Shown in pieces: positions 1 through 27,530 of a DNA stretch of 38,476 nucleotides (position 1 is the stretch's first letter; the number at the start of each line of letters is the position of its first letter). The position numbers were made by a program, and so were the translations under genes. The stretch is from a virus (taxonomy: Duplodnaviria > Caudoviricetes). The notes below the pieces were generated by a model. It had not been told where the DNA came from and did not search any database. It saw only the letters and a list, made by a program, of their open reading frames with translations. The stretch lies in IMG/VR virus record IMGVR_UViG_3300020043_002188, positions 1 to 38,476 of that record; one strand, written 5' to 3'.

Positions 1-121
1 GGGTTCTTGGCTTTCCAGCCGAAGTTGACCCCGCGCACTTTGTACTTCTGCTCGGTCAATCTGTCAAGGATGCCGTAGCCCAGCCCACCCTCGTCGATCA
101 CGGTCAGGGCAGGGCGGTACT
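1..121. repeat. Terminal direct repeat, left copy (contig circularity overlap)
   Basis: 1-121 matches 38356-38476 except C84 vs A38439; the terL frame reads through the join. Confidence 0.95.
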
Positions 122-1229
122 CCTCGATGGCGTCGATGACGTGGCCCACGGTGGTCATGGTGTCGTCACCCCGGAACCGCTTGATCGCCACGATGTCCCG
201 GCCTTGGCGCACGGCGATCACGGTGCTGTCCATGCCGCCCCGGGCCGGGTCAACGCCGATGATGATGGGCGCGGTCATGTCTTTGTGCAGCGCCCGTTTC
301 ATGGCGTCATCAACAAGGTGCGGTGCGATGAACTGGTCTTGGCCCGACTTGGGGAAGTCCCCATAGACCTCGACCCGGGCCTCGTCCGAGTCCTCACCGT
401 ACTCGTTGATGATCTGCTGGTAGATGGTCTTGTCGGTGCCCTCGACCGTGCGGGCGTCGATCTTCTCGCTCTCCCAGAACTCCCGCTTGCTGCCGTCCAC
501 GGCCTCATAGAAGTACCCGGTGTTGCGCCGTCCGTTGCTGAACGCCAGCCAGTACCGGTCCAAAATGTTCTCGGTAAAGAAGCCCGCAGCCACGGACCAG
601 ATGCTGTCTGGAATACCGCTGGCCTCGTCGAAGATCACCATCATGCCGTCCATGTTGTGCACACCGGCATAGGCGTCTGGGTTCTCCTCGCTCCACAGTT
701 TGCCCTCGGCACCCCAGTACCGGGTGCCTTTGCGCAGGTCACGCTCGACCAGTTCAGTCAACCAGTTGGCCGGGTTCAGGCTCGTGGCCGTGGGTTCCCA
801 CCAGTGGGCGTTGATCGCCATCGTGACCCACTTGGTCAACTCACCCCATGTGACTTTGCGCAACTGGTTCTCGCTGTTGGCCGACACGATGACAGATGAC
901 CCGATCCGAGTGGTCAGCATCCACAGGATCAGCCACGACACGAGGGCAGACTTACCCACCCCTCGGCCAGAGGACACAGCCCTGCGCAGCGCGTCGATCA
1001 ACTCGTCGTTGCTCTGCTTGCCCCGGTTCTCTTTGATGAAGTCCCGTATCCTGCGCAGGGCTCTGCGCTGCCATGTGCGCGGGGCTTTGAAGTGTTCGAG
1101 TGGGGTGTTCTTCTGCCCCCAAGGGAATGCGAACAGCACAAACGCCTCGGGGTCATCCTTCAGAGCAGGACTCCAAAGCTGCGACATGAGCGTCTGCTCA
1201 TCTTCTGGGCTGTACCGGGGTTTCTGCAT
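1..1229 (-). CDS. terL: Terminase large subunit, 5' part (continues across the join to 38043; about 513 aa in total)
   Basis: Absent from the ORF track because it runs off the end. Manual translation from the ATG at 1229 gives MQKPRYSPEDEQTLMSQLWSP...RAVSSGRGVGKSALVSW (Walker A). It is in frame with the 38043-38456 ORF and lies downstream of terS. Confidence 0.93.
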   Translation of the reverse strand, partial: MQKPRYSPEDEQTLMSQLWSPALKDDPEAFVLFAFPWGQKNTPLEHFKAPRTWQRRALRRIRDFIKENRGKQSNDELIDALRRAVSSGRGVGKSALVSWLILWMLTTRIGSSVIVSANSENQLRKVTWGELTKWVTMAINAHWWEPTATSLNPANWLTELVERDLRKGTRYWGAEGKLWSEENPDAYAGVHNMDGMMVIFDEASGIPDSIWSVAAGFFTENILDRYWLAFSNGRRNTGYFYEAVDGSKREFWESEKIDARTVEGTDKTIYQQIINEYGEDSDEARVEVYGDFPKSGQDQFIAPHLVDDAMKRALHKDMTAPIIIGVDPARGGMDSTVIAVRQGRDIVAIKRFRGDDTMTTVGHVIDAIEEYRPALTVIDEGGLGYGILDRLTEQKYKVRGVNFGWKAKN

Positions 1230-1387
1230 CAATGTTCCTTCAGTTCGCCGGTTTCGTACTTCTCACGGCCATCAAGTGAATTGTGGATCAACACATCATG
1301 GTCCTCGTCGTACTCGGGGTGGCACCAGCATTCCCGACCCTCGACGATGTGGTCGCGCAAGTCGTTGATTGGATAGACGTGGGTCAT
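1229..1387 (-). CDS. Small His/Cys-rich hypothetical protein, 52 aa
   Basis: Manual translation MTHVYPINDLRDHIVEGRECWCHPEYDEDHDVLIHNSLDGREKYETGELKEH; TAATG and TGATG overlaps couple it to both neighbours. Confidence 0.75.
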   Translation of the reverse strand: MTHVYPINDLRDHIVEGRECWCHPEYDEDHDVLIHNSLDGREKYETGELKEH

Positions 1388-1590
1388 TAGGTGGTCTTTG
1401 CGCGGATGGCCTGATCTACACGTTTTGCAAGACCACGGTCAGCGCCAAGAAGTGCGATTCCCGCCCTGTACGCACACGCTTCACGCTCGGCAGCAATCTC
1501 ATGCTGCATGTACTCCAGCGTCACCGTACCGTACTGTGTAGGCTGGTTCTCTGGATCGATAAATAGCTGCAACACGCCACGATCAATCAT
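1387..1590 (-). CDS. Hypothetical protein, 67 aa
   Basis: Stop/start overlaps on both sides; contains an AAEREACA motif that I recall from small phage proteins. Confidence 0.7.
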   Translation of the reverse strand: MIDRGVLQLFIDPENQPTQYGTVTLEYMQHEIAAEREACAYRAGIALLGADRGLAKRVDQAIRAKTT

Positions 1591-2153
1591 CAGTCGTTCT
1601 CCAGTCTTGAGGTTACGTCAATCACCTCACCCTCGATCACCCGGGCTTGGGCCTGCGCCAGCGCCTCAGTGATGGAGATGGTGCCGCCGAGTTCAACTTG
1701 TTTGATCTCGCCGTAGCGTTTCTTGTTGTGTGCGCTCATGAGCCACTTGCGCGTGTCGATGCGCAGCTTGTCCCTGTTCACCGTGTCGTTCGAGTTGGCG
1801 TCGATCGCCTCGACCCCATCCGCAATTTCCAGAATCTCCCCGGCAAGAAACTCAGTGCGCATCTCCTGCGCTTCCTTGAACCGTTCATGGCGGGTGGCAT
1901 CCCGCTTGACCCAGCGCAGGAAGTCCTCATACGAGATGGCCCTGTGGTCATCCTCAATCAGCGATTGCAGGGACCGGCCACGGTAGATGTCTTCCACGAC
2001 TCTCTCGAAGATTTGCTCATATTCGACATGCAGCAACGCCCTTGCCTCCTTCGAGGTTCTGAGGGGTTCTGGGTCAGGCACGGACAGCCAGTTGGGCAGT
2101 TGATTCTCACTGGCGACAGCCGTGCCTACAAACGAGGTGTTCTCTTGTTTCAT
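1590..2153 (-). CDS. terS: Terminase small subunit (Sf6 gp1-like)
   Basis: N-terminal HTH-like segment (GRSLQSLI...FLRWV) and motif KLRIDTRKWLMSAHNKKRYGE typical of Sf6-type TerS; upstream of terL. Confidence 0.88.
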   Translation of the reverse strand: MKQENTSFVGTAVASENQLPNWLSVPDPEPLRTSKEARALLHVEYEQIFERVVEDIYRGRSLQSLIEDDHRAISYEDFLRWVKRDATRHERFKEAQEMRTEFLAGEILEIADGVEAIDANSNDTVNRDKLRIDTRKWLMSAHNKKRYGEIKQVELGGTISITEALAQAQARVIEGEVIDVTSRLEND

Positions 2154-2174
2154 AGTGCCCTCAGTGTACTACGG

Positions 2175-2239
2175 GATTTTCACGGTGTCTATGGAACCCA
2201 CTGGGTTTCTGATTTTTGAAAAAATTTTCACGGTTTCTG
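2175..2239. repeat. Direct repeat ATTTTCACGGTnTCT (2 copies) upstream of terS
   Basis: Copies start at 2175 and 2225 and flank an AACCC-ACT-GGGTT palindrome. Confidence 0.55.
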
Positions 2240-2783
2240 TGATACCGCCCGGCCAACAGCCCACCTCGCTCCGGCCCTCACCCGCCCCCATCGAACCGCT
2301 GGCACGATTTATGCTTTGCGCCGCGCCGCCGCGCCGCGGACCGATCGCCCAGCGCCGCCGCATCACCGCGCCGCCCAGGATATCGCAGCCCAGCGGGTCC
2401 AGATTATCCGCGGATCCTGGCGCTAATCGATCACCCAGGATAATCGGATCCCCTGGGTTTACGGGTCCAGGGACTGGATCACCCAGCGGGTTAAAGGAAC
2501 CCAGGGGATCTAGGGAAATCCTGGCGACTGGATCACCCAGCGGGTTAAAACGGGGGTTTTGGGGGCGATTGTGACAAGTCGCCCTTTCGCGCAGGCAAGG
2601 CGAAAGAATATAACTTTTTCCACTGGGTCATTTAATCTGAAAATCCCGAAACCTTACCCCAGCGATAAAAGGAACAATTGTCACCACCCCCAAAAAGAAC
2701 CCCTGAAGCATCACCCAGCGGGTTAGGGTTTATCCTGATGCAAATATTTTGTCGTACCTGTTGACAATCTAACCCGCTGGGTT
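2195..2783. promoter_or_regulatory. Array of pseudo-palindromic ACCC-N3-GGGT(T) sites, putative operators
   Basis: Sites at 2195-2207, 2388-2398 (GCCC variant), 2481-2492, 2535-2546, 2713-2724 and 2771-2783. Includes a perfect 24-bp direct repeat at 2472-2495 and 2526-2549. Confidence 0.65.
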
Positions 2784-2788
2784 ATAAT
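2761..2788 (+). promoter_or_regulatory. Consensus sigma70 early promoter
   Basis: TTGACA (2761-2766), 16-bp spacer, TATAAT (2783-2788); AT-rich upstream; about 65 bp before the first early gene. Confidence 0.85.
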
Positions 2789-2852
2789 TACATCACCGGA
2801 ACAAATCCGGCACACTGTAACCCGTAACCTGTAACCCCGAAAGGACCTGATC

Positions 2853-3041
2853 ATGAACAAATCCGAAACCCGCGAAGTCGCCAAGATCGCCCAATACCAC
2901 GCCGCAGGCCTGGGCGCTGATTTTGTCGCCCGCGCTCTGTCTTCCCTGATCCGCGCCGCCCGTACAAATAAGAGCGCCGCCGCGCTGCAGGATATCGCCG
3001 CTGATTTTGGCGTCACCGATCACCCTGAATTCATTTGCTGA
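2853..3041 (+). CDS. Early hypothetical protein, 62 aa (first gene after the promoter)
   Basis: GAAAGGA RBS within the leader repeat; no family recognised. Confidence 0.8.
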   Translation: MNKSETREVAKIAQYHAAGLGADFVARALSSLIRAARTNKSAAALQDIAADFGVTDHPEFIC

Positions 3042-3050
3042 TCTAACCCA

Positions 3051-3067
3051 GGGGGCGCGAAGCCCCC
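3051..3067 (+). other. Intergenic GC hairpin without a U-tract
   Basis: GGGGGC-GCGAA-GCCCCC between early genes 1 and 2. Confidence 0.5.
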
Positions 3068-3101
3068 GCCCTGTAACCCGTAACCCTGAAAGAACCTGAT
3101 C

Positions 3102-3242
3102 ATGAATAAGCACCAATTGACGTACATCGATATGTACCCCGCCCCTGTCGATCGTGAACCGTCCGCCCTGGCGATCTGGGCAGGCGCTGCCCTGGCGCTG
3201 ATCGCCCTGTACCTGATCACCCTGTTTTTGTTCACCCTGTAA
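3102..3242 (+). CDS. Small membrane protein, 46 aa (not in ORF track)
   Basis: MNKHQLTYIDMYPAPVDREPSALAIWAGAALALIALYLITLFLFTL; starts at the ATG of one 38-bp repeat and stops inside the next; C-terminal hydrophobic helix. Confidence 0.8.
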   Translation: MNKHQLTYIDMYPAPVDREPSALAIWAGAALALIALYLITLFLFTL

Positions 3243-3267
3243 CCCGTAACCCTGAAAGAACCTGATC

Positions 3268-3576
3268 ATGAAAACTGAAAACCCCGTTATCCTGTCCGCC
3301 CTTGTCGATCGCCTTGCTGCGATCAAAGCCCAATTGGCGGATCTGTCCGCGGAAGAGAAAACCCTGAAGGGTGAATTGATCGCTGCGGATCTGCCCACGA
3401 TCGAAGGAACCGCGCACCGTGTCGCTGTTTCGTTCTGCCCTGGACGTGAAACGATCGATTGGCAAGCTGTCGCCGCTAAATTTAACCCGTCCCGCCAATT
3501 GATAACCGCGCACACTGCCCAGGGCGCGCCGTTTCATACTGTCCGCGTGTCCGCCAGGAAAGGGGTGAAATCATGA
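3268..3576 (+). CDS. Early protein with N-terminal coiled coil, 102 aa
   Basis: Starts at the repeat ATG; heptad segment LVDRLAAIKAQLADLSAEEKTLKGEL. Confidence 0.85.
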   Translation: MKTENPVILSALVDRLAAIKAQLADLSAEEKTLKGELIAADLPTIEGTAHRVAVSFCPGRETIDWQAVAAKFNPSRQLITAHTAQGAPFHTVRVSARKGVKS

Positions 3577-3806
3577 TCGACGCTAAATTTATGCGGGATC
3601 ACTTTACCCTGGTGACGATCACCGATAACCCCGCGCCTGCTGGGGTCCGCCTGGATCCTGAAGACCTGCGGGAAATCCTGGACGCCGTTAAATCTGGCGC
3701 TGCCCGCCTGCGGGGTCCGCGCTGCGAGTTTTCCGATAAACGCGCCGCCGCGTCACTGACTTTCGCCGCCGCCCTGATCACTGAAGCCCTTGAAAGGACC
3801 GAATAA
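3573..3806 (+). CDS. Early hypothetical protein, 77 aa
   Basis: ATGA overlap with the previous gene; GGGGTG RBS. Confidence 0.8.
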   Translation: MIDAKFMRDHFTLVTITDNPAPAGVRLDPEDLREILDAVKSGAARLRGPRCEFSDKRAAASLTFAAALITEALERTE

Positions 3807-4489
3807 TGCCCGCCTATCATTTTGTCGCCGTGTCTGCTAATCGTAAAACCGGAAAAATCCCCGTCACTTATTCTGAGCGGGACACCTGCCCGCCGTCCTG
3901 CCCGCATTATCGGGCGGACTGTTACGCGGAAGATTATTACACCCGGATGACCTGGGACAAGGTTCCCGCCCGCGGGGGATCCCTGGCGGATCTGTGCGCA
4001 TCGATCGCCGCCCTGCCCGCTGGGTCCCTGTGGCGTCACAATGTAGCGGGCGATCTGCCCGGATCTGGGGAAGACCTGGACCCCGCCGCCCTGGGCGATA
4101 TCGTCCGCGCCAATATTGGGCGGAAGGGTTTCACGTACACCCACAAAAAAACCGCTGACGCCCTGTACTGGGCAGGGCAGGCGACAAGCTGGGGTTTCAC
4201 CGTGAACCTGTCCGCGGATGACGCGGGCGAAGCTGACGCCCTGGCGGACGTGTCTGATTGTCCGATCACCTGTATTGTCCCGATCGATACCCCGCCCAAA
4301 ACCTATACACCGGACGGGCGCGTGATCATTGTCTGCCCTGCCCAGGTCCGGGACGATATCACCTGTCAATCCTGCGGACTGTGTGCGATCGCTGATCGCG
4401 CCGTGATCATTGGGTTTCGCGCACACGGAACCCGCGCCGCGGTTACTGACGCGAAAGCCCGCCGCGTGATCCCGATCGTGAAAGGATGA
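3806..4489 (+). CDS. Cys-rich radical-SAM-like phage protein (Gp88/DUF7227-like)
   Basis: Motifs NRKTG, TCPPSCPHYRADCYA (Cx3Cx6C), RHNVAGD, FTYTH, VNLSAD, CPAQ...TCQSCGLC and IGFRAHG; family assigned from recall. Confidence 0.7.
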   Translation: MPAYHFVAVSANRKTGKIPVTYSERDTCPPSCPHYRADCYAEDYYTRMTWDKVPARGGSLADLCASIAALPAGSLWRHNVAGDLPGSGEDLDPAALGDIVRANIGRKGFTYTHKKTADALYWAGQATSWGFTVNLSADDAGEADALADVSDCPITCIVPIDTPPKTYTPDGRVIIVCPAQVRDDITCQSCGLCAIADRAVIIGFRAHGTRAAVTDAKARRVIPIVKG

Positions 4490-4493
4490 AATC

Positions 4494-4838
4494 ATGCCCA
4501 AAAAATTGATCTTTAACATGATCCGGGCTAATGACGTCCGCGAAGCTGTCCAGTATTACCCGATCGTTTTTCTGCGGGGGTCCAGGTCCTGGCGGTTAGC
4601 CTTGCACCGTGAACCCGTCCTGGCGGGAAAGGGTGATTGGATTGTTTCGGACCCTGTGGGCGGTCACCGGGTTTGCCGGGTCACCGCGTCATTTAAAGGG
4701 GTCCCCGTATCGTCCAGGGACCTGCCCGTAAATCATGCCCGCGCCGCTGCCCTTATCGATCTGGATCTGACTGTTGACCGTATCGGCCTGGATCGTTTCG
4801 CCGCCGTCCTGGACGCCGCCCAAAACCCGAAACCCTGA
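4494..4838 (+). CDS. Early hypothetical protein, 114 aa
   Basis: Flanked by the 21-bp direct repeats, which carry an AAGGA RBS. Confidence 0.8.
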   Translation: MPKKLIFNMIRANDVREAVQYYPIVFLRGSRSWRLALHREPVLAGKGDWIVSDPVGGHRVCRVTASFKGVPVSSRDLPVNHARAAALIDLDLTVDRIGLDRFAAVLDAAQNPKP

Positions 4839-4850
4839 AAGGATGAAATC

Positions 4851-5054
4851 ATGCCCCTGGATCTAATGAAGCTGCCCGCCCCTGAAGCTGAAGCCCTGGC
4901 TTATGCTGAAGGGTTCACAAATACCGCGCACCTGTTCGCCAGGATCGCGGATCTACAAAAAGCCCTGGGCGAAGCCGTGAACGAAATCGAACAATTGAAA
5001 ACGGATCTTTACGCCGCCCAGTATGAGCGGGCATATCCCCGGGGGGATGAATGA
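4851..5054 (+). CDS. Early hypothetical coiled-coil protein, 67 aa
   Basis: Starts at the repeat ATG; segment IADLQKALGEAVNEIEQLKTDL. Confidence 0.8.
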   Translation: MPLDLMKLPAPEAEALAYAEGFTNTAHLFARIADLQKALGEAVNEIEQLKTDLYAAQYERAYPRGDE

Positions 5055-5137
5055 TCACTTTTTCGATTGTCGTTTCACTCATTTTCGCCGCCGTCCGCGC
5101 CTTGCTGCTGCTGATCGCGTCACTTATCAAGCCGTAA
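5051..5137 (+). CDS. Hydrophobic 28-aa peptide (not in ORF track)
   Basis: MITFSIVVSLIFAAVRALLLLIASLIKP; ATGA overlap with the previous stop; ends just before the terminator. Confidence 0.55.
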   Translation: MITFSIVVSLIFAAVRALLLLIASLIKP

Positions 5138-5148
5138 CCCGAACCCGT

Positions 5149-5176
5149 CCCCCAGGTGATCCCTGGGGGCTTTTTT
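5149..5176 (+). terminator. Rho-independent terminator of the early transcript
   Basis: CCCCCAGG-TGATC-CCTGGGGG-C-TTTTTT. Confidence 0.85.
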
Positions 5177-5196
5177 GACCCTGAAAGAATCCGATC

Positions 5197-5493
5197 ATGA
5201 ACGATACACCCGCCCCCGCCGCCCTGCCCAGCTTCGCCCAGGATCTGGGGGCGCTGATCACCCGCCGCGGACTGGATGAACCCCGCGCCGCGGGTCTGCT
5301 GGGGGTTCCTGTCTTCACCCTGCGGAAGTGGATCGCCGGGACCCGCGCACCGTCCGCCGCCGCCGTCCGCCTGCTGGACGTCCTGGGAACCCTGGACGCG
5401 ATCGCCCCCGCGCTGCTGGACGCGCTGACGCCCGCCGCCGCGCCCGCCGCCCCCAAGCGGCCCCGGGGACGACCAAGTGTCAAAATAGACTAA
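5197..5493 (+). CDS. XRE/Cro-like HTH regulator with C-terminal AT-hook
   Basis: RRGLDEPRAAGLLGVPVFTLRKWIAGTRAPS fits an XRE HTH; the tail contains KRPRGRP. Confidence 0.8.
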   Translation: MNDTPAPAALPSFAQDLGALITRRGLDEPRAAGLLGVPVFTLRKWIAGTRAPSAAAVRLLDVLGTLDAIAPALLDALTPAAAPAAPKRPRGRPSVKID

Positions 5494-5605
5494 GGCTCCC
5501 AACTAACCATCGGGCCTTTGGTTTTAAGGCATCGAACTAACCGTCAAGCCCTTGGTTTTAAGGCTCCCAACCAGCCGTCAAGACCACTTTTTAAGGAATC
5601 GAACC
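5491..5605 (+). repeat. Imperfect tandem repeat, about 3.4 copies of 34 bp
   Basis: Units start at 5491, 5525, 5559 and 5592 (TAAGGC[TCCC/ATCG]AACTAACCGTCAAGCCCTTGGTTT); the last partial unit supplies the RBS of the 5606 gene. Confidence 0.85.
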
Positions 5606-5818
5606 ATGAACCCTTTTGCACATTTCCAAGCCCTGTACGGCCACCTCGAACTGTCCGAAGATGACGCAGCCCTGCACCTGTTCCTGTCGGGCTGGAACAC
5701 GGCCATGACCGAGATGATGCAGCGCGTGAACGCCATGCCCTTCGGTAACGATACCCGGGCCAGCTTCGCCGTGTATTTCCAGTCCCAGATGGTCGATGTC
5801 AGTGAGATTGAAAAATGA
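5606..5818 (+). CDS. Hypothetical protein, 70 aa
   Basis: TAAGGA RBS before the ATG at 5606 (MNPFAHFQALY...). Confidence 0.75.
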   Translation: MNPFAHFQALYGHLELSEDDAALHLFLSGWNTAMTEMMQRVNAMPFGNDTRASFAVYFQSQMVDVSEIEK

Positions 5819-5925
5819 AGCCCTGCACCGACTGCAAGCGTGACCGACTGCCCGAGGGTGGGGTGCAGATGTCACCGACCCGGTGGATTTGTGCCCAGTG
5901 TTGGCGAAAATTCTTTACCAGCTAG
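5815..5925 (+). CDS. Small CxxC...CxxC zinc-finger protein, 36 aa (not in ORF track)
   Basis: MKPCTDCKRDRLPEGGVQMSPTRWICAQCWRKFFTS; ATGA overlap. Confidence 0.65.
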   Translation: MKPCTDCKRDRLPEGGVQMSPTRWICAQCWRKFFTS

Positions 5926-5931
5926 GTAAAC

Positions 5932-5956
5932 AAAAAAGGGGACCAGCGGTCCCCTT
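5932..5956 (-). terminator. Terminator between convergent genes
   Basis: AAGGGGACC-AGC-GGTCCCCTT; the A-run gives a U-tract on the minus strand just after the primase stop. Confidence 0.8.
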
Positions 5957-5957
5957 G

Positions 5958-8456
5958 TCATTCGTCCATGTCCGGGGTGTACCCCTTGACCAGCTTACGA
6001 TCGTACCCCTTGGCCGTGGCGTGGCGGTAGATGTAGTCAGCGTGGCGCTGCTTGGCCTTGATGACCGTCTGCCGGTAATCCTTGAACATCTCAGGCAGCG
6101 TGGGGTTGATGGCCCATGTGACCTTTTTCTTGTGCAGTTCACTCTCGATCTGCACCGCCCAGCCAGCCTGCTCGATGACCAGCATGGCGTCCATAATCGC
6201 CTGATCCTTCTGCCAGTCGGTCTTGCCCTCCAGTGGCCTGCGGGCCGACCGTTTGAGGCTGCGCAGGTCAATGGTGTGCACCTCGCCGCTGATCTGCACA
6301 ATGTAGTCAATTACCCACTGATCAAACGTGTCGGTGATGACCCCGCCCACCTCGCCCAAGGCGTAGCGGTAGGCCGGGATGATGTACCCGCGCACCAGAC
6401 TGACCACCCTGTGGACAACATCGACTGACACCACGGGGTTGAAGGGCGACTCGATGACGTGGAACATGAGAATCAGACGGCCAGCTAAACCTTCCAACTT
6501 GCCGAAAGCCGTCATGTACTCTGTGCCGCTGTCCAGCACCCGCTCGTCCTGCTTAGCCGACTCATACCACTGCTGGAATTCCCTGAAGGCTGTGTACGCT
6601 TCTGTGGATAACTGGTACGTCTGCACGGGCAGCGCGTAGGTCAGGCGCAGGGTGTTCTCCCATGCCCCGGCGCTGCTCATGTAGTCGGGGATGGGCTGGC
6701 CCAGCTTGGTCTTGCTTCCGCGCAAGATAGCGGGGATGAACCGTTGCAACAGGCCGTCAGCCGACAGCGCGGCCAAATTGGCCTTGAACACTTGGGGCTG
6801 GATGTTGCCGTAGATTGACACAGCAAGGTTCTCGGCATAAATCGACCCAGCGCCCACTCGGTCCATCTCGTAGTGTTCTGACTCGTAACTGACAACCCAC
6901 GCTGACCGGTCCTCGCCGCTGCTCTTGTCTGTCAGCTTGCGCACCCAACTGTTCATCTCATCGAGGTAGCACAGCAGGCCACGGGGCCGGTCTGCCGCTT
7001 GGCGCACCAGCTTCTGACTGGTGATGTCGCTGACTGTGATTTTGAGCGGCACCGGCTGCGTTGACAAGTCGGGCACAAGCGGTGCCTGATCGCCGCCCAG
7101 CATGGCCTCGGTCGACGATGACCACTCTAGGAATGCCTTCTTGGCGCTGGCGTGTTGGGCCTCTTTGCCCTCCCAGTCGAGCAGTTCCTTGCCGTAGCGG
7201 GGCCGGTCCTCGGCCTCGATGTTCTTCAATGGCGACAGCATGGGCCGCGATCCGGGTGACTTCTTGTCCGCTGGGTCGCCCAAAGTCATGAGCCACAGCA
7301 CCGGGGGCACCTTGAACCCCGGCATGAGTTCCAGCCGTGTGCGGGCGTCAATCACCCCGCAGACAGCGGCCAACCCAGCGAACAAAGGGACCAAAGGGTC
7401 ACAGCCCACGCTTTCTGAAATCTCAGTGGATCGGGTCTTGAGGATGCTGGGCCACAGGGACAGGTCCATCTCGGGTGGCTTGGGCCGCAGGCCGTCCATC
7501 ACGCTCAATGGCTCCATCACGGGGATGTCGATCTTGCTGAACAACTCGGACGCATCGGGCATGGGTCGCTGCCACCCGTGCTGCTTGGCAATATGGAACA
7601 GTGTCCCCAACTTGACAGCGGTGGCCTTGTCAGTCTTGAAGCTGATCCACTGCGTCAGAATCTCACGCTCACCGGGGTACTTTGTCTGTGCGGTAGCACT
7701 CCATTCGTTCCACAGTGCCAGCGCCTGCTCAAGCTGATCGGTCTGAGTGCCCGCCCAGTGCAGTGCCATGCCGATGTTCACCCACTCGTCGCGGGTGCAG
7801 TCGGCAGGTACAGCATCAAGGGCTTGCCTGATCTCTTCCCACGAGGCGTCAACCGTGCCGTCTGTGGCGATGGTGCGTTCTTTGTCCTGCGCCAGCATCC
7901 CACTCCACAGGTCCAGCAGGGCTTGGGGGATGACGGGCATCCGGGTCCAGTGGCCGTGGCCCGCCCAGTGGTAGGGCTGGCGTGTCTCGGGGTGGATTGA
8001 CGGGGGCAGCACGTCTTGCACCGTGAGGCCGCTGACCGTGGCGCAGCGCAACTCGTAGGCCGTGATGCCACTGTGCATGATCTTCTTTGAGGGCAGCGCC
8101 GCGCCGAAGGGCATTGCGTACAGCAGCTTGCCGTGCCCGGGCTTGCCCGAGTTGATCACCACGGCATCAGGCGCATCGTATAGGGCTTGCAGGTCGATGC
8201 CGTGCTCGGCCAGCAGACTGGTGGTCACGGTCCAGTTGTCGATGTCAAGGGCCATCGTGCCGCTGTACGCATGGGCCAAGCCGATGCCGTAGCCTTGCGG
8301 CAGATCGCCTTGGGCCTTGAGGGCGTTCTGTTTGAGGTTCCAACCCGGGGTGCGCGGCCCCTTGGTGTTGGCTGGGATGGGGACAAGTGACCAGCCGTGT
8401 CTGATGTAGGCATCAACAGACGCTGGATGTGATTGCACAGTCTGTGGTGCTGTCAT
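5958..8456 (-). CDS. Bifunctional primase-polymerase with PriCT-2 and DUF3987 (YfjI-like) helicase-like domain, 832 aa
   Basis: Prim-pol N-terminus (YIRHGWSLVPI...KGP...ALDID...VLPPSIHP); PriCT-2 (RDEWVNIGMALH...WNEWS...KY); DUF3987 motifs (PPVLWLMTLGDPADKKSP, LDEM, DGLLQRF). Likely start is MTAPQ at 8456. Confidence 0.88.
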   Translation of the reverse strand: MTAPQTVQSHPASVDAYIRHGWSLVPIPANTKGPRTPGWNLKQNALKAQGDLPQGYGIGLAHAYSGTMALDIDNWTVTTSLLAEHGIDLQALYDAPDAVVINSGKPGHGKLLYAMPFGAALPSKKIMHSGITAYELRCATVSGLTVQDVLPPSIHPETRQPYHWAGHGHWTRMPVIPQALLDLWSGMLAQDKERTIATDGTVDASWEEIRQALDAVPADCTRDEWVNIGMALHWAGTQTDQLEQALALWNEWSATAQTKYPGEREILTQWISFKTDKATAVKLGTLFHIAKQHGWQRPMPDASELFSKIDIPVMEPLSVMDGLRPKPPEMDLSLWPSILKTRSTEISESVGCDPLVPLFAGLAAVCGVIDARTRLELMPGFKVPPVLWLMTLGDPADKKSPGSRPMLSPLKNIEAEDRPRYGKELLDWEGKEAQHASAKKAFLEWSSSTEAMLGGDQAPLVPDLSTQPVPLKITVSDITSQKLVRQAADRPRGLLCYLDEMNSWVRKLTDKSSGEDRSAWVVSYESEHYEMDRVGAGSIYAENLAVSIYGNIQPQVFKANLAALSADGLLQRFIPAILRGSKTKLGQPIPDYMSSAGAWENTLRLTYALPVQTYQLSTEAYTAFREFQQWYESAKQDERVLDSGTEYMTAFGKLEGLAGRLILMFHVIESPFNPVVSVDVVHRVVSLVRGYIIPAYRYALGEVGGVITDTFDQWVIDYIVQISGEVHTIDLRSLKRSARRPLEGKTDWQKDQAIMDAMLVIEQAGWAVQIESELHKKKVTWAINPTLPEMFKDYRQTVIKAKQRHADYIYRHATAKGYDRKLVKGYTPDMDE

Positions 8457-8500
8457 AGAATAATCCCGTTGGTGATTGCAGTTGCCGACACTTTGTTCAT
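8453..8500 (-). CDS. 15-aa leader ORF coupled to the primase start
   Basis: AAGGAG-7nt-ATG, MNKVSATAITNGIIL; its TGA overlaps the primase ATG (ATGA). Confidence 0.5.
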   Translation of the reverse strand: MNKVSATAITNGIIL

Positions 8501-8514
8501 TGAGCTTCTCCTTC

Positions 8515-8548
8515 AAAGCCTCGGTCTAACCACCGGGGCTTTTTCTTT
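8515..8548. terminator. Stem-loop in the divergent control region
   Basis: AAAGCCTCGGT-CTAACC-ACCGGGGCTTT followed by TTCTTTT on the plus strand. Confidence 0.55.
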
Positions 8549-8570
8549 TCCAAAAATAATTTCAAACCAG

Positions 8571-8600
8571 TTGCACAATCGTATCACAGTGGTGTACACT
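8571..8600 (+). promoter_or_regulatory. Putative sigma70 promoter of the replication operon
   Basis: TTGCAC-18bp-TACACT with an AT-rich upstream element, just before the RHH gene. Confidence 0.5.
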
Positions 8601-8626
8601 TGCGCCATCGGTCAAGGAAATTATTT

Positions 8627-8839
8627 ATGACATCACCCAAATCCAAATCAGCGTTCATGACTGTCCGAGTGACAGACAAGACGCGCACCAAGTTTCATGA
8701 GAAAGCACGGAAGATCGGAACACCGAGCGAAGTGCACCGTGAAATCGTCGAGGCGTTCGTAGAAGACCGCCTCACAATTCAACCCCCCGTAAACCGTAAC
8801 CCTCTGGAGAAACTTTATGTCACTCGAACTCAAGATTGA
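8627..8839 (+). CDS. Ribbon-helix-helix (Arc/CopG-like) regulator, 70 aa
   Basis: AFMTVRVTDKTRTKFHEKARKIGTPSEVHREIVEAFV has a strand-helix-G-helix pattern; AAGGA RBS. Confidence 0.7.
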   Translation: MTSPKSKSAFMTVRVTDKTRTKFHEKARKIGTPSEVHREIVEAFVEDRLTIQPPVNRNPLEKLYVTRTQD

Positions 8840-9242
8840 AGCCCTGACTGCCGCTGTCACTGCCCTGACCGCACAACTGCAATCCGGCAATGTAGCAGCA
8901 CCCGCACCTGTTGCACCAGCACCGGCCCCTGTGGTACAAGCTGCCCCCGTTGCTGCTGCTCCTGCTCCTGTTGCAGCACCTGCTCCTGTGGTCGCTGCTC
9001 CGACCATGCCAGCGCCTCCCACCTTCGCAGCCCCTGTGGCCGCACCCGCTACCACTGGCGCACCGTTCACTGACCCCAAGGGCTTGATCGACTACGTGAT
9101 GGGTGCCTACAAGGCTCTTGGCCCACAAAAGGGTGCTTTGATTCAAGGCGTCTTGACTGGTCTGGGCTACCAGAACATCAACGATGTCAAGCCCGAGCAC
9201 TATGCTGCACTGCACACTGGCGTTGAAGCCCTGAAAGGTTGA
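8817..9242 (+). CDS. Ala/Pro-rich linker protein of the DUF2800/DUF2815 module
   Basis: MSLELKIEALTAAV N-terminal helix, AP-rich linker and small helical C-terminal domain; GGAG RBS. Confidence 0.8.
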   Translation: MSLELKIEALTAAVTALTAQLQSGNVAAPAPVAPAPAPVVQAAPVAAAPAPVAAPAPVVAAPTMPAPPTFAAPVAAPATTGAPFTDPKGLIDYVMGAYKALGPQKGALIQGVLTGLGYQNINDVKPEHYAALHTGVEALKG

Positions 9243-9244
9243 TC

Positions 9245-9637
9245 ATGAAGAAACTCGTCATTCTTGCTGCAATTGTTGCTGCTTTGACGGGTTGCTCAAA
9301 GGATGCTGACGTGGCATCCCGCAACCTGTCCAATGCCGCCGACATGTTTGAAATCAATCGCCGTGTGGTCTTCTACAACGGCATCAATGGTGAGTACATG
9401 TTGACCGTTGAAGGACTTTGCTCTCTTGGGAACAACGACCGAGCCGGTCAACTGTCCATCACATGCAAAGTCGGCCCCACCTCATACAAGAAGCACTTTC
9501 TCGGACTGTCCGACAACGTGACTTATTTTGTTGAGCAGCTTGAGGCCAGCAAAGTCAGCGCGTACCACTACCGTGTGATTTTCAAACCGCAGTCAATCAT
9601 TCCAGATGTTGATTTTCGTGCTGGGGTTGGTAAATGA
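9245..9637 (+). CDS. Lipoprotein
   Basis: Signal peptide MKKLVILAAIVAALTGC with LTGC lipobox; mature part resembles a recurrent phage lipoprotein family (ADxASxNLSxAADxFEIxRRVVF). Confidence 0.85.
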   Translation: MKKLVILAAIVAALTGCSKDADVASRNLSNAADMFEINRRVVFYNGINGEYMLTVEGLCSLGNNDRAGQLSITCKVGPTSYKKHFLGLSDNVTYFVEQLEASKVSAYHYRVIFKPQSIIPDVDFRAGVGK

Positions 9638-10929
9638 GCGCCCACGCCATGCTGTCCCCATCGAAGCGCAGCCGCTGGGCCTTGTGCCCCGGCAGCATTC
9701 GAGAGGAGGCCAAGTACCCTGACACCGGTAGCGGCCCCGCTGCTGCCGATGGCACACACTCGCACACGCTGCTTGAGCACTGCATCAAGAACGGCTTGTC
9801 GGACCCAATGGATCAGGTGGGGGAAACCTTCACAGGTCACGAGGGCACGTTCAAGGTGGACGCTGACCGCGCAGCCCGGGTCAAGTCGGCCATCGAGTAC
9901 ATCCGCAATCGTTCAATGAACGGTTTGTTCCCGGTGATTTCCGAGCAACGTGTGGACCCCGAGTTCCTGCTGGGTCGCAAAGACCTGTCGGGCACCGTGG
10001 ACTGCCAGATCATCGGCCCTGACTTTCTTGAGTTGATTGACTACAAGGACGGCATGGGTGTGGTGAGTGCCGAGGGCAACATGCAGCTTGAGCAGTACGC
10101 CTACGGTGTGCTGGCTGGCTACAAGCTGCCTGTCAACGGCAACTTCCCGTTTGACCGGGTGATCATGACCATCATTCAGCCCAAGCTGGCGCTGAAGGGC
10201 ATGACGCCGATCACTTCACACGCTGTCACGGTGCGCTCTTTGTTGGACAACGCAGGTACAATCATTGTGCAAGCCGCTGCCACTGACAAACCAGATGCAC
10301 CGCTTGTACCGGGTGAAAGTCAATGTAAATTCTGTCGTGCGAAAGGCTCTTGCGCCGCGCTGGCAGGTAACGTAATGAAGGAGGTAGGAATCATGTTCCA
10401 GCCAGTCGTAACCGAAACACTCGATGTCGCGCAGCAGTCTGCCGATAAAGACCCGGCCCAGATGGACGATGCCCAGATTCGTCAGATCATGGAAGCCGCA
10501 CCCCTGATGCGCCAACTTCTCGAAGCTGTGGAAAAAGAAGCCATGCGCCGCATGGAGTCAGGCATCTCGATCCCCGGCCTCAAACTGGTTAACGGTCGCG
10601 GCTCCCGCGCTTGGGCACTGCCCGAAGCCGAGATGGCCGAGAAGCTGGTCAAGATGGGCATCCCCAAAGGCGCGATTTACGAAACCAAACTCGTCACACC
10701 CGCCAAGGCTGAGAAGCTGACGTGGGAGAAGAAAGACGGCACCAAGGTGTCGTTGACCGAGCGTCAACTCAAACGCATGGATCAGGAGTACGTCAGCAAG
10801 CTGGCGGGCAAACTGACCGTGGTTCCTGAATCTGATGGCCGTCAGGCTGTCATCATGAATGCTGCACCGATGTTCAGTGCAGTAGAAGCAGCACCCGCTG
10901 CCGAATCCCTGCCCTCGTGGCTTTCTTAA
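9634..10929 (+). CDS. DUF2800 Cas4-like PD-(D/E)XK exonuclease
   Basis: HAMLSPS..RWALCPGS, GTHSH, GTVD, IDYKDG, QLEQYA and CKFCRAKGSC. Confidence 0.9.
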   Translation: MSAHAMLSPSKRSRWALCPGSIREEAKYPDTGSGPAAADGTHSHTLLEHCIKNGLSDPMDQVGETFTGHEGTFKVDADRAARVKSAIEYIRNRSMNGLFPVISEQRVDPEFLLGRKDLSGTVDCQIIGPDFLELIDYKDGMGVVSAEGNMQLEQYAYGVLAGYKLPVNGNFPFDRVIMTIIQPKLALKGMTPITSHAVTVRSLLDNAGTIIVQAAATDKPDAPLVPGESQCKFCRAKGSCAALAGNVMKEVGIMFQPVVTETLDVAQQSADKDPAQMDDAQIRQIMEAAPLMRQLLEAVEKEAMRRMESGISIPGLKLVNGRGSRAWALPEAEMAEKLVKMGIPKGAIYETKLVTPAKAEKLTWEKKDGTKVSLTERQLKRMDQEYVSKLAGKLTVVPESDGRQAVIMNAAPMFSAVEAAPAAESLPSWLS

Positions 10930-10944
10930 ACTGGAGTAAATGTA

Positions 10945-11634
10945 ATGTCTGAAATCATCTTTTTATCGAACGTCCGTCTGTCTTTCCCACATCTCGCTGA
11001 ACCACAGCGCCAGATCAACGAGCAGACCGGCAAAGAACGCATCTCGTACAACTGCGAGTTCATCATGCCCCAAGAGCACCCCGGCTTCCAGCAGTTCATG
11101 GCCCGCTACGGTGCCTTGGCACTGGAGAAGTGGAAGGAACACGCTCAAGCTGTCATGGGCATGATCCAGCAGGATCGCAAGACCCGCTGCTTCGGTCGTG
11201 GCGAGGAGAAGGTCAACAAGAAGACCTTTCAACCCTACGATGGCTACGCAGGTCATGTGTTCATCACCGCAGGCCGGGACACCGCGCCTCAGATGATCCA
11301 AGCCGATGGTCAGCCCATCGACCCCACCAACACGATGGCCTACCAGCAGCTTGCCCGCAAGATGTACGGTGGTTGCCGTGTTAACGCTGCCATCAAGCCT
11401 TGGCCGCAGGACAACAAGCATGGCCGTGGCATCCGCTGCGACTTGATCGCTGTCCAGTTTGCTGGTGATGACACAGCCTTCGGTGAAGGCAACGTGGACG
11501 CCTCTGGCATGTTTGGTGCTGTGGCTGGCGCTCCCGCTGGCATGTTCGCCCCGGCTGCTGCTGCACCTGCTGCCGCTATGCCTGCCGCACCGTTTGGTGC
11601 ACCCACGGGCCTGCCTTCGTTCTTCGGCCAGTAA
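10945..11634 (+). CDS. DUF2815 ssDNA-binding protein
   Basis: NVRLSFPHL, YGGCRVNA and IAVQFAGDDTAFG motifs; usual position between nuclease and polymerase. Confidence 0.85.
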   Translation: MSEIIFLSNVRLSFPHLAEPQRQINEQTGKERISYNCEFIMPQEHPGFQQFMARYGALALEKWKEHAQAVMGMIQQDRKTRCFGRGEEKVNKKTFQPYDGYAGHVFITAGRDTAPQMIQADGQPIDPTNTMAYQQLARKMYGGCRVNAAIKPWPQDNKHGRGIRCDLIAVQFAGDDTAFGEGNVDASGMFGAVAGAPAGMFAPAAAAPAAAMPAAPFGAPTGLPSFFGQ

Positions 11635-11641
11635 TTGAATC

Positions 11642-11687
11642 GGGGCCACTGCCTCTGGGGGTTCCCGGGGGACCGGCCAGTGGCCCC
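11642..11687 (+). other. Long intergenic stem-loop before the DNA polymerase gene
   Basis: GGGGCCACTG (11642-11651) pairs with CAGTGGCCCC (11678-11687), enclosing an inner GGTTCC/GGGACC hairpin. Confidence 0.6.
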
Positions 11688-11706
11688 ACCTACACGAGTA
11701 ACCGTA

Positions 11707-13560
11707 ATGAGTAACGACTATGTATTCGACATCGAAACCTATCCCAACGTGTTCACGCTGGCAGTGGAACACGCAGAAGCACCTCTGCACTGGATGTTCG
11801 AGATCAGTGACCTACGCAACGACAGTCGTCAGATCGTTGAGTTCCTCCAGTTCCTCAAGGAAACCGACTCACGCATGGTCGGCTTTAACAACTTGGGGTT
11901 CGATTACCCTGTGATCCACACCCTGATCCGCATGGGTCAAAGTGATGCCAACACGCTGTATCAAAAGGCGATGGCAATCATCAACGCACAGGATGAAGAT
12001 GGTGGCCGCTGGATGCACTCGGTCAAGCCCTCGGACCAGTTCGTCGCACAGATCGACCTGTTCAAGATTCACCACTTCGACAACCGCGCCCGCGCCACCA
12101 GCCTCAAGGTGCTGGAGTTCAACATGCGCAGCGACAGCATTGAAGACCTGCCGTTCCCGGTGGGCACCGTGCTGACCCGTGACCAGATCGAAGTGCTCAA
12201 GCAGTACAACAAGCACGATGTGGCGCAGACCAAGGCGTTCTACTACCACACGCTTGACATGATCCACTTCCGTGAAGAGCTGACGCGCAAATACGCCCGG
12301 GACTTTATGAACCACAACGACACCAAGATCGGCAAAGACTACTTCACCATGAAGTTGGAAGAAGCCGGTGTCGCTTGCTACGACTTCGGCCCGAATGGCC
12401 GCACACCCCGGCAGACCAAGCGCCCAGTGATCCACCTCAAAGACGCCATCCTGCCGTGGATCAACTTCGAGCATCCTGAATTTAACCGGGTAATGAACTG
12501 GCTCAAGGCTCAGACCATCACCGAAACCAAAGGGGTCTTCACGGACCTCACAGCAACCGTCGATGGCTTCACTTTTGTTTTTGGATTAGGAGGCATTCAT
12601 GGCTCAATGGAATCGGTTGTGGTCGAATCCGATGACGAGAACGTCATCATTGATTTGGACGTTACCAGCTACTACCCAAACCTTGCAATCACGAACGGCT
12701 TCCATCCGGCCCACTTGGGTAAAGAGTTTGTCAGCATCTACAAGCACCTGTTCGAGCAGCGCAAGCAGTACCCCAAGAAGTCCGCAGAAAGTGCGATGCT
12801 GAAGCTGGCGCTGAACGGCGTCTACGGTGACAGCAACAACCAGTTCTCGATCTTCTACGACCCGCTGTTCACCATGTCGATCACGCTCAACGGCCAACTG
12901 CTGCTGTGCTTGCTGGCCGAGGGGTTGATGCACATCCCCGGGCTGCGCCTGATCCAAGTGAACACGGACGGCTTGACAGTGCGTGTGCCCCGGGCCAACA
13001 AGATGCTGGTCGATCTGGCCCGCGCTGCATGGCAGACGCGCACCGGGTTGAACCTTGAAGAAGCCGTCTACAAGGCCATGATGATCCGCGATGTCAACTC
13101 GTACATCGGCGTGTTTGAAGACGGCAGCACCAAGCGCAAGGGTGCCTATGAGTACAAGGTCGGCTGGCACCAAAACGCTGGTGGACTGGTGGTGCCCAAG
13201 GTGGCCGAAAAGGTGCTGGTTGACGGTGCACCGATCCGCGAGACAGTCGAGCAGTGGCCTGAGATTATGGACTTCATGCTTCGCACCAAAGTGCCCCGCA
13301 GCAGCCACCTCGCTATTGAGTGGGACGGTCAGCAGCCCCAGAAGTTGCAGAACATAACCCGTTATATAATAACCAAAAACGGTGGGCGATTGTTCAAATG
13401 GATGCCCCCTCTCAAGGGCAAGACCGAGTGGCGCAAGATCGGTGTCGAAAGCGGCTGGGGTGTTCAACCATGCAACAACATTCGTGACGCAGATGGTGTC
13501 GAGATCGACTACGACTATTACATCCGCGAAGTGGAAAAACTCGTACTGGGGCTTGTTTGA
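11707..13560 (+). CDS. DNA polymerase, family B, with 3'-5' exonuclease domain, 617 aa
   Basis: ExoI FDIETY, ExoII GFNNLGFD, ExoIII YNKHDV; motif A DLDVTSYYPN, motif B KLALNGVYG, motif C QVNTDG. Confidence 0.92.
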   Translation: MSNDYVFDIETYPNVFTLAVEHAEAPLHWMFEISDLRNDSRQIVEFLQFLKETDSRMVGFNNLGFDYPVIHTLIRMGQSDANTLYQKAMAIINAQDEDGGRWMHSVKPSDQFVAQIDLFKIHHFDNRARATSLKVLEFNMRSDSIEDLPFPVGTVLTRDQIEVLKQYNKHDVAQTKAFYYHTLDMIHFREELTRKYARDFMNHNDTKIGKDYFTMKLEEAGVACYDFGPNGRTPRQTKRPVIHLKDAILPWINFEHPEFNRVMNWLKAQTITETKGVFTDLTATVDGFTFVFGLGGIHGSMESVVVESDDENVIIDLDVTSYYPNLAITNGFHPAHLGKEFVSIYKHLFEQRKQYPKKSAESAMLKLALNGVYGDSNNQFSIFYDPLFTMSITLNGQLLLCLLAEGLMHIPGLRLIQVNTDGLTVRVPRANKMLVDLARAAWQTRTGLNLEEAVYKAMMIRDVNSYIGVFEDGSTKRKGAYEYKVGWHQNAGGLVVPKVAEKVLVDGAPIRETVEQWPEIMDFMLRTKVPRSSHLAIEWDGQQPQKLQNITRYIITKNGGRLFKWMPPLKGKTEWRKIGVESGWGVQPCNNIRDADGVEIDYDYYIREVEKLVLGLV

Positions 13561-13561
13561 T

Positions 13562-14074
13562 ATGTGGAAAGACGTACTTGATTTTGAAGGCTATGAGGTG
13601 TCGTGTGACGGCAGTGTTCGGTCATGGTTACCGGAACGAAACAACGCACCATCTCCGGCACAACCACGGCTATTGAAGTTCATTGTTACGCCCGGTGGAT
13701 ACCGGCAAGTGAACCTGTACGCAAACGGAAAGCGACGAGTGGTGCGGATTTCGGTGCTTGTTGCCGAAACTTTTCATGGTCCGCGCCCTGCGAATGCCGT
13801 GTTGCGACACTTGAACGGGAATCGTCAAGACGACAGAGCCGTGAATCTTAAGTGGGGCACCACGCAAGAAAACAATGACGACATGCGACGACACGGAACA
13901 TGGGCGCATGGTGAACCCATCCACACATCCAAATTGACTGAGCAGGACGTGCAGCACATTCTGCAAAGTGATGAACGAGGTGTTGATCTTGCGAAACGAT
14001 ACGGCGTTACGCCGGGAAACATTTGCCACATTCGCAAAGGGCGAAGCTGGAATCACATTGAGAGGACACAATGA
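13562..14074 (+). CDS. NUMOD4-HNH homing endonuclease, 170 aa
   Basis: MWKDVLDFEGYEVSCDGSVRS (NUMOD4), RHLNGNRQDDRAVNLKWGT (HNH) and a C-terminal HTH. Confidence 0.9.
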   Translation: MWKDVLDFEGYEVSCDGSVRSWLPERNNAPSPAQPRLLKFIVTPGGYRQVNLYANGKRRVVRISVLVAETFHGPRPANAVLRHLNGNRQDDRAVNLKWGTTQENNDDMRRHGTWAHGEPIHTSKLTEQDVQHILQSDERGVDLAKRYGVTPGNICHIRKGRSWNHIERTQ

Positions 14075-14340
14075 AAGCGCGTGACATTCAAATCGGTGGC
14101 GATCACTACAAGAACATGGGCGTCGAGCCTTGGGATGTGGTTGACACATGGCCCATCGAGCAACGCATCGGGTTCTACCGTGGCGGGGCGCTCAAGTACG
14201 TGATGCGCATGGGCACCAAAGACGAGAACGCCCAAGAGATTCGCAAGGGTGCTCACTACCTGCAAAAGCTGGCCGAGGTGCTGGAGCAGCGCGACATGGA
14301 AATCAAACACGATCTTGATGCGGGGTGCCAAGGTGCTTGA
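14071..14340 (+). CDS. DUF3310 protein (T7 gp1.7/SaV-like)
   Basis: QIGGDHYK...EPWD...GFYRGGALKYVMR...EIRKGAHYL. Confidence 0.85.
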   Translation: MKARDIQIGGDHYKNMGVEPWDVVDTWPIEQRIGFYRGGALKYVMRMGTKDENAQEIRKGAHYLQKLAEVLEQRDMEIKHDLDAGCQGA

Positions 14341-16451: not shown

Positions 16452-16495
16452 AAGTGTGATACACTTGTTGCACATCAACCATTGGAGTAACTGTA

Positions 16496-18953: not shown

Positions 18954-18954
18954 C

Positions 18955-19194: not shown

Positions 19195-19200
19195 CTCTTG

Positions 19201-22563: not shown

Positions 22564-22566
22564 GAT

Positions 22567-24085: not shown

Positions 24086-24097
24086 TCGGGTTTCTCC

Positions 24098-27529: not shown

Positions 27530-27530
27530 T

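Follow-up and report, generated by a model that had tools for sequence, protein, structure and literature searches.

An early-gene block purged of short words and loaded with CCWGG and GATC in a podophage genome

Introduction

Why would a phage keep, within one short block of early genes, a restriction-type word that it has nearly eliminated from the rest of its genome? The question is raised by IMG/VR record IMGVR_UViG_3300020043_002188 (Duplodnaviria; Caudoviricetes), whose 38,476 bp were analyzed in full and are referred to here as the window. An earlier note on this DNA, made from the sequence alone, had reported about 38 copies of CCWGG (CCAGG or CCTGG) in positions 2375-5396 and only two elsewhere, where dozens would be expected. 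These positions fall in an early-gene block between the terminase small subunit gene (terS) and the primase gene; we call this block the leader and the remainder of the genome the body. Avoidance of sites is the textbook answer of phages to restriction; here one motif is under opposite selection in two compartments of the same genome, a signal that motif counts over whole genomes hide. The compositional compartment proved to be real and family-wide, and no description of an entry-region adaptation with such packing of methylase sites was found in the open-access papers searched.

Results and Discussion

CCWGG is packed into the leader and avoided in the body

An exact count gave 40 CCWGG in the 38,476 bp, 38 of which (13 CCAGG and 25 CCTGG) start within 2375-5391, the other two starting at 37124 and 37155, in full agreement with the earlier note. 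The excess in the leader persisted under codon- and dinucleotide-aware null models. Its eight open reading frames (ORFs) hold 28 CCWGG; permuting the codons within them leaves 13.1±2.7 (at most 22 in 2,000 permutations) and re-encoding them with the codon usage of the body 7.9±2.4, while dinucleotide shuffling of 2300-5470 yields 8.1 for the 38 observed, a count reached in none of 1,000 shuffles. The non-coding stretch 2300-2560 carries 7 CCWGG and 7 GATC, where dinucleotide shuffles give 0.8 and 1.9, respectively. The coding sequences of the body contain 2 CCWGG against 108±8.4 under codon permutation (minimum 81 in 300), so that avoidance in the body is equally clear. Chance or codon bias as the cause of the packing is ruled out by these permutations and by the ban-only model described below. 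A maximal-order Markov model that takes its CCAG and CAGG counts from the leader itself expects 34.5 CCWGG, and hence shows no excess, but this expectation is circular, because most of those 4-mers in the leader sit within CCWGG sites. The pattern is real and larger than first stated, and the true feature is wider than CCWGG.

Other elements of the earlier description also held. The near-miss CCAAG/CTTGG, said to be used by the body, occurs 147 times outside the block and once inside, and the helicase codons quoted as an example (CGC CAA GGC CAA GGT) are genuine and in frame, at 15865. The complete record gave no match to the C5 (PF00145) or Dam-type (PF02086) methylase families, and no methylase was found among its 55 ORFs with Pfam/PHROGs; any methyl marks would therefore be host-made.

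The body lacks 32 of the 64 six-base palindromes, most of which stay rare in the leader too. Such genome-wide avoidance of type II sites, stronger than codon nulls predict (CCWGG, 2 vs 107), is the rule for the body, and the leader breaks it for CCWGG, RGATCY, CCGCGG and GGCGGA. Several non-palindromic words are also short in the body: ACGTCG (0 vs 23 expected), GCACGC (0 vs 19), GGCGGA (0 vs 18), GAGACC (1 vs 13) and TAAGG (4 vs 34).

The block is first of all a purged zone

Two points had been missed in the earlier note: the zone is mainly purged, and GATC is loaded in it as strongly as CCWGG. A set of banned words has 23 hits in the 3,165 bp inside the limits 2290 and 5455, found by a two-rate fit, and 2,735 in the 35,311 bp outside (0.0073 vs 0.0775 per base), a 10-fold contrast that is inflated because the set was picked from this same window; every other 500-bp interval was far from comparable. 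Compared with expectations scaled from the body, the zone is depleted in GAG/CTC (7 vs 73), CAAC (2 vs 46), CCAT (0 vs 29), CCAC (8 vs 40), ACCA (4 vs 37) and GGCC (2 vs 20). In 32 held-out loci, a set of 60 five-mers trained on 22 relatives falls, on crossing the start of terS, from a density of 13-16 per 100 bp to one of 4-8; the words lost most consistently in the leaders of relatives include AGATG, ACGAG, AGGAG, AGAAG, CCAAG, ACCAG and CACAG. These lost words appear to resemble the ends of type IIG, type III and BREX sites, examples of which are GGTAAG, TAGGAG, ACACAG and AGACC. A cause acting on mRNA, such as RNase targets or avoidance of Shine-Dalgarno sequences, was rejected because the depletion affects both strands and non-coding DNA. 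The vocabulary of the leader is reduced as well, with 1,023 distinct 6-mers against 1,350 in body segments of equal size.

In addition to CCWGG, the zone contains 61 GATC where 17 are expected, and compared with the body it is loaded with RGATCY (14 vs 0), GGCGGA (11 vs 0), CCGCGG (8 vs 0) and CGATCG (11 vs 4). How much of this could follow from the purge was evaluated with a ban-only model, in which codon choice is penalized solely for the significantly depleted words (23 bans). The model raises the expected CCWGG from 8.5 to 16.6±2.8, with 28 observed (a residue of about 4 standard deviations, SD), gives 24.6±3.7 GATC against 46 observed in genes (about 6 SD), and fully reproduces the excess of CGCG, GGWCC and CCGCGG. 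Under half of the CCWGG excess is therefore a funnel effect of avoidance, and a positive residue is left for CCWGG and GATC.

The packed palindrome changes between lineages

Relatives were collected as the best 80 of 269 loci in a scan with DUF7227, the family of one of the leader proteins, and the best 80 of 261 in a scan with terS, plus 20 loci that were only mapped; 104 loci span terS to the gene for a helix-turn-helix (HTH) protein and were dereplicated to 54 distinct leaders. A leader was counted as enriched when its observed/expected ratio (O/E) was 2 or more and no less than 1.8 times the body value; this holds for CCWGG in 8 of the 54 leaders, for CCSGG in 16, for GGCC in 12, for GATC in 7 and for CGCG in 3. 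Gene order is conserved, but even where terS is 92-98% identical the leaders can be unrelated and hold few or no CCWGG. The closest named phage, DSL-LC05, has the same gene order and differs in its leader, which contains 0 CCWGG (1 in the 37.6 kb of its genome). The leader is thus a swappable module whose packed palindrome (CCWGG, CCSGG, GGCC or GATC) changes by lineage, an abundant group of lake phages repeating the packing with different motifs. For this reason the effect is not confined to Dcm, EcoRII or DISARM, which the earlier note had named as systems targeting CCWGG.

Coding and non-coding parts of a leader share their packed word. Over the 54 loci, the rank correlation between O/E in the non-coding array and in the coding part is 0.73 for GATC, 0.62 for CCWGG, 0.61 for CCSGG and 0.58 for GGCC, and weaker (0.15-0.27) for TCGA, CATG, GGWCC and AGCT; the P values overstate independence because the loci are related. 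The top palindrome of each coding part is found 202 times in its own array against 86 expected (O/E 2.35), whereas permuted labels give an O/E of 1.27±0.19 with a maximum of 1.88 in 2,000. Since the same word is enriched in both parts, the force acts on DNA.

In a 67-row tree of DUF7227, the CCWGG-rich state requires 8 changes, at least 3 of them forced by well-supported branches, and it recurs in phages of other architecture (L053 and L064). Throughout a clade whose primases are 86-98% identical, CCWGG-rich leaders are combined with CCWGG-poor bodies, so the contrast between leader and body is long-lived. Maps in 500-bp steps, inspected by eye, showed no comparable CCWGG island in the distant, cultured or deposited phages VvAW1, X14, RpY1, ct8d5349 and P26218, and Curvibacter phage P26059A is nearly devoid of CCWGG and CCSGG in the 40 of 84 kb examined. 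Some further loci deserve mention. L053 (6000-8250) and L064 (1-3500), both without matches to the terminase and portal of this group, each have a DUF7227 island packed with GGCC and CCWGG, CCSGG being absent from the whole locus. L035 and L037 are a mirror image, with CCWGG at a normal density of 13 per 3 kb in the body but close to absent (2 per 3 kb) from the leader. L082 (MW202483), with a portal 68% identical, encodes a C5 DNA methyltransferase at 30041-31018, among small genes between terminase and primase.

The entry end and comparison with known systems

The segment is likely the first DNA to be injected, as circumstantially suggested by gene order, a predicted promoter, the sharp borders, the border repeats and the contig ends of relatives. 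Four of these ends lie at 2261, 2262, 2263 and 2283, and three at 2129-2136, about one 127-base k-mer away; together they are 7 of the 35 ends mapped in 1500-6500, some of them duplicated.

The comparisons that follow draw on passages of the cited reports. Restriction sites matter in the first-step-transfer segment of T5 and BF23 and are tolerated elsewhere (PMC10644984), and in Murciavirus (Autographiviridae) type I sites are selected against only in the early-injected region (PMC12455610); purging of first-injected DNA is thus already established. The likeness to T5 and BF23 lies in a discrete early-gene segment and a repeat-rich non-coding border beside the later DNA (PMC10644984). Local depletion of restriction-type words, a trait of the T5 type, is found here too, the banned set being 10-fold rarer inside the segment than outside, on both strands, with depletion also in held-out relatives. 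The T5 type also has small early genes under host-polymerase promoters at a genome end; here a predicted promoter and eight small ORFs are seen, and a candidate end is suggested by 7 of the 35 mapped contig ends. In contrast, the T5 segment is a 9.7-kb terminal repeat, while that described here measures 3.2 kb and is known from assembled sequence alone; Dam and Dcm sites are unmethylated in T5 DNA, and those passages report no enrichment of methylase sites (PMC10644984). Unlike T5, this phage purges short words of 3-4 bases and loads palindromes. Murciavirus shares a hypervariable early region with local selection against sites, but this concerns one bipartite site of one host enzyme and was shown experimentally; positive enrichment does not figure in the passages, nor Dcm or GATC in the paper's text (PMC12455610).

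Among host defenses, methylation is reported to repress DISARM, a system reported also to restrict DNA without its sites (PMC9142583), and conjugation from methylating donors was 134- and 82-fold higher (10.1101/2021.12.28.474362). Both class 2 (CCWGG) and class 1 could in this way select for marks on incoming DNA. DISARM is a host system, absent from the window, and its anti-phage protection did not rise with the number of sites (10.1101/2021.12.28.474362). Leading regions of conjugative plasmids are likewise first-entering DNA of distinct composition; the difference is that they enter single-stranded and, in the passages concerned, show no general depletion of type II motifs, their composition being attributed to codon adaptation (10.1101/2025.04.03.647016).

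Possible host methylation of the loaded words

CCWGG and GATC may be enriched because the host methylates both, in which case the marks would label the first-entering DNA as self; we favor this reading tentatively, rating it somewhat below an even chance. As purging is known for entering DNA, and neither an overlap shield nor a repair-driven bias holds (see below), what remains is that the loaded words could be those methylated by the host. A methylated self signal appears to be the sole option of the earlier note left standing: its observations of avoidance in the body, enrichment in the leader and absence of a methylase were borne out, while the shield and deamination as the main cause were not.

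The mechanism would operate as follows. The block is purged on each of its strands, is loaded more heavily than codon or avoidance nulls predict, and in relatives shares a lineage-specific palindrome between coding and non-coding DNA. It would enter first, in the manner of T5, and be exposed before early proteins act. The purged words would be cores of asymmetric sites of type I, IIG, III and BREX-like systems, which the later-entering body would tolerate. The loaded words would be targets of resident host methylases, virion DNA being marked about every 30 bp, so that the cognate enzymes could not cut and defenses switched off by methylation, such as DISARM, would be damped; merely lacking the site would be no escape from the latter. 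The body would complete the arrangement, as a backbone common to phages with other leaders in which type II palindromes, CCWGG included, are avoided wholesale.

A more ambitious version, an "epigenetic passport", holds that the first 3 kb evolved for hypermethylation by the host and actively silence methylation-sensing defenses until early proteins are made; we consider it possible, though on balance unlikely. If it were true, the host methylome could be read from the packed palindromes, which would help to match uncultured phages with their hosts, and host range would be set by the DNA words of the swappable leader in addition to its genes. If the marks are functional, counter-defense would be encoded in DNA vocabulary and not in protein, and it could be tested directly whether the entering end is read by defenses that methylation represses.

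Several observations weigh against host methylation as the cause, besides the relatedness of the loci noted above. Avoidance alone accounts for about 8 of the 19.5 excess CCWGG and for all the excess of CGCG, GGWCC and CCGCGG, and bans that are unfitted or past could account for more. Words of the body and of the leader are not inversely related in general (5-mer rho 0.02), most body-avoided words remaining absent from the leader, and CCWGG stays at an O/E of 1.2 or less in 39 of the 54 leaders, many of them close relatives. The putative marks are unevenly spaced (coefficient of variation 1.3 vs 0.98 for random placement), and their density shows no gradient from the end. Contig depth does not double over the leader, although assembled contigs cannot show duplication. 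P22 packages by headful, and the P22-like portal and coat of this phage could point to the same mode, which would weaken the idea of a fixed entry end. Host marking cannot be assumed, because the Dam and Dcm sites of T5-like phages carry no methylation (PMC10644984). Finally, in the conjugation experiments a control without the motif was also up 21-fold, and anti-phage protection by DISARM did not follow site number, unmethylated sites increasing targeting (10.1101/2021.12.28.474362).

Alternative explanations

The best-surviving alternative, which we regard as a possibility with the balance tilted against it, is that the entry module is under strong and shifting avoidance, that words methylated by the host are never purged and pile up passively with inactive marks, and that the module was recombined onto a CCWGG-free backbone. 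This would explain why the ban-only model doubles the expected CCWGG and covers CGCG, GGWCC and CCGCGG, and it fits the reduced vocabulary of the leader and the near-zero CCWGG throughout the relatives with terS 92-98% identical, and likewise in DSL-LC05. It leaves unexplained the residues of CCWGG and GATC after current bans are fitted, the 9-fold CCWGG excess in non-coding DNA and the long-lived contrast between leader and body. Whether the marks are active or the words passive filler, the packed words should correspond to the host methylome, and even in the passive case the word list of the leader predicts motifs that the host methylates and motifs that it restricts.

A mutational origin seems very improbable. 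It would require very-short-patch T:G repair in heteroduplexes (for example, in a terminal repeat) to make T-to-C changes in the leader, and unrepaired deamination of 5-methylcytosine to erode CCWGG in the body. The distribution of CCAAG/CTTGG described above, with 31 more copies than expected in body genes, the modest bias to the inner C-to-T change among single differences from a relative's CCWGG in the body (32 of 112, vs 12 of 84 in CCSGG controls) and the low GGTC in GGCC-rich leaders (ratio 0.48) are as expected from it. However, other neighbors of the missing sites are in larger or similar excess in the body (outer C to G, +91; inner C to G, +48; inner C to A, +32; CCSGG, +28), which fits selection better than deamination, although other causes may raise those neighbors; deamination, which the earlier note had brought up, is not upheld as the main cause of CCWGG loss in the body. 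In the leader, the specific depletion of CTWGG that would be the signature of Dcm/Vsr repair was not found, enriched leaders depleting other neighbors as much or more (CGWGG 0.41 vs CTWGG 0.74; GGAC 0.29). GATT is not depleted, the leader makes more use of the codons GAT, AAT and TAT, which end in T, and the purge of GAG and GGCC would be left unexplained.

There is also little to be said for a signal internal to the phage, read by packaging, replication or entry machinery, or for a decoy that soaks up host enzymes. The P1 pac site carries clusters of GATC, and here the densest cluster of sites adjoins terS and the candidate end and is interspersed with the repeated ACCCRNYGGGT box found throughout the family. 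Against this, the enrichment extends over 2.6 kb of coding sequence, phages with terS more than 90% identical pack different words, and a decoy within essential early genes would be cut. The hypothesis that methylated CCWGG or GATC was placed to block overlapping restriction sites is hardly credible: both GGCC of the window's leader do sit in GGCCTGG, AGAT survives mostly as AGATC (103 marked vs 24 unmarked in five leaders) and TCNNGA is marked in 27 of 46 cases against 45% expected (P 0.04, one of seven tests), but surviving sites overlap putative marks no more than by chance in related leaders (GGCC with CCWGG in 11 of 54 contexts vs 22% expected; ATCGAT, 10/13 vs 86%; TCGA, 25/56 vs 45%; GGWCC, 19/81 vs 25%), and just 22% of 6-mer windows contain a putative mark.

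Genome context and genes of the segment

Features of the window are collected in Table 1. Its two ends (1-121 and 38356-38476) overlap within terL over 121 bases with 99% identity, by which the window is taken as complete and circularly permuted. Profile searches with Pfam/PHROGs identified P22-like virion genes (portal, coat and ejection proteins) and replication genes for a primase-helicase, an Enc34-like single-stranded DNA-binding protein, a DNA polymerase and an SNF2 helicase; genes for a GroES-like co-chaperonin (36515-36763) and a glutaredoxin (16707-17051) were also found. The closest named record, DSL-LC05 (OR003940), was assembled from a lake metagenome and shares 95% identity in the portal, 91% in TerL and 74% in the DUF7227 protein; passages of its description propose the family 'Luchaoviridae' and give a predicted host (PMC10611076). 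The best-matching sequencing runs were mostly from lake water, each with less than one third of the genome's words. In the search for a host, the portal matched contigs from genomes of various taxa (21 in all, 5 Burkholderiales-related), probably phage contigs that had been mis-binned, and none of the matches listed in 401 genomes with the left 19 kb as query was spacer-like (43 weak matches were unlisted). Of the 144 genomes surveyed in one candidate host genus, 7 had EcoRII-C and 19 had DUF1998, the latter mostly in frames of 1,700-2,200 aa; this survey has no bearing until the phage's host is identified.

Table 1. Positions of the features described in the window
Feature	Position	Strand	Remarks	Basis
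Whole window	1..38476		38,476 bp; virus, Caudoviricetes; complete podophage genome, circularly permuted, ~38,355 bp	
Terminase small subunit (terS)	1590..2153	-	Left neighbor of the zone; body-type composition	Pfam/PHROGs
Candidate physical genome end or assembly junction	2261..2283		Just left of the purged segment	Contig ends of relatives, suggestive only
Purged and loaded segment	2290..5455		About 3,166 bp; early-gene module between terS and primase	Two-rate change-point fit
Non-coding low-complexity array	2300..2560		Left end; 7 CCWGG and 7 GATC around ACCCRNYGGGT box copies	
Five ACCCRNYGGGT boxes	2196, 2481, 2535, 2713, 2772 (range 2196..2782)		Last one inside the promoter spacer	
Predicted sigma-70 promoter, early genes	2761..2788	+		Consensus 12/12
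Four small early ORFs (62, 46, 102 and 77 aa)	2853..3806	+	With repeated upstream leader units	
DUF7227 protein, 227 aa	3806..4489	+	Related to GP88	Pfam, E 2e-71
Two early ORFs, 114 aa and 67 aa (acidic, net charge -6)	4494..5054	+	No family	Pfam/PHROGs
Terminator-like hairpin	5149..5179	+	Stem contains two CCWGG and one GATC	
Repressor-like ORF, 98 aa	5197..5493	+	Last gene of the segment	phrog_2104, E 3e-4
Tandem border repeats	5491..5600	+	Three units of 34 nt with four copies of the core; at the right border of the purged segment	
Sole two body CCWGG	37124..37159	+	In one family-less ORF, 36760-37209, minus strand	Pfam/PHROGs

The ACCCRNYGGGT box is present in 1-10 copies in the 1 kb upstream of terS in all 54 relatives, against 0.03 per kb in bodies. 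It is palindrome-like and likely a protein-binding site, for which TerS, the repressor-like protein or primase would be candidate binders. The predicted promoter falls in the longest stretch free of CCWGG and GATC, 318 bp from 2531.

No anti-restriction protein was identified among the leader proteins by profile and fold searches. The four small early ORFs gave no family with Pfam/PHROGs, and the fold of the 102-aa protein matched only uncharacterized phage proteins, with no clear solved structure. The DUF7227 protein was modeled as a Cys-rich, partial TIM-barrel-like fold (predicted local distance difference test score, pLDDT, 76) with GP88 neighbors; no clear solved match was obtained in the fold search, the best VIA match having Z 6.4, and radical-SAM rows (Z 5.1-5.8) did not stand above unrelated ones. 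C28, C32 and C39 are invariant, in a loop that is poorly modeled. One search returned 2,669 homologues, and no paper naming DUF7227 was found among the open-access texts searched. Among orthologues, the E-to-D and S-to-T changes of this lineage remove banned words or create sites.

At the position of the repressor-like ORF, the DSL-LC05 gene is annotated as repressor protein C. The border repeats that come next follow the HTH gene in 15 of the 54 relatives, and across them the density of depleted words climbs from 2-9 to 11-14 per 100 bp in 7 held-out loci, which makes them a candidate injection-stop or regulatory array. Most early genes are preceded by repeated upstream units with a ribosome-binding site (2820-2857, 3069-3106, 3235-3272, 4479-4499, 4836-4856 and 5164-5201), which may be recombination points for the exchange of cassettes.

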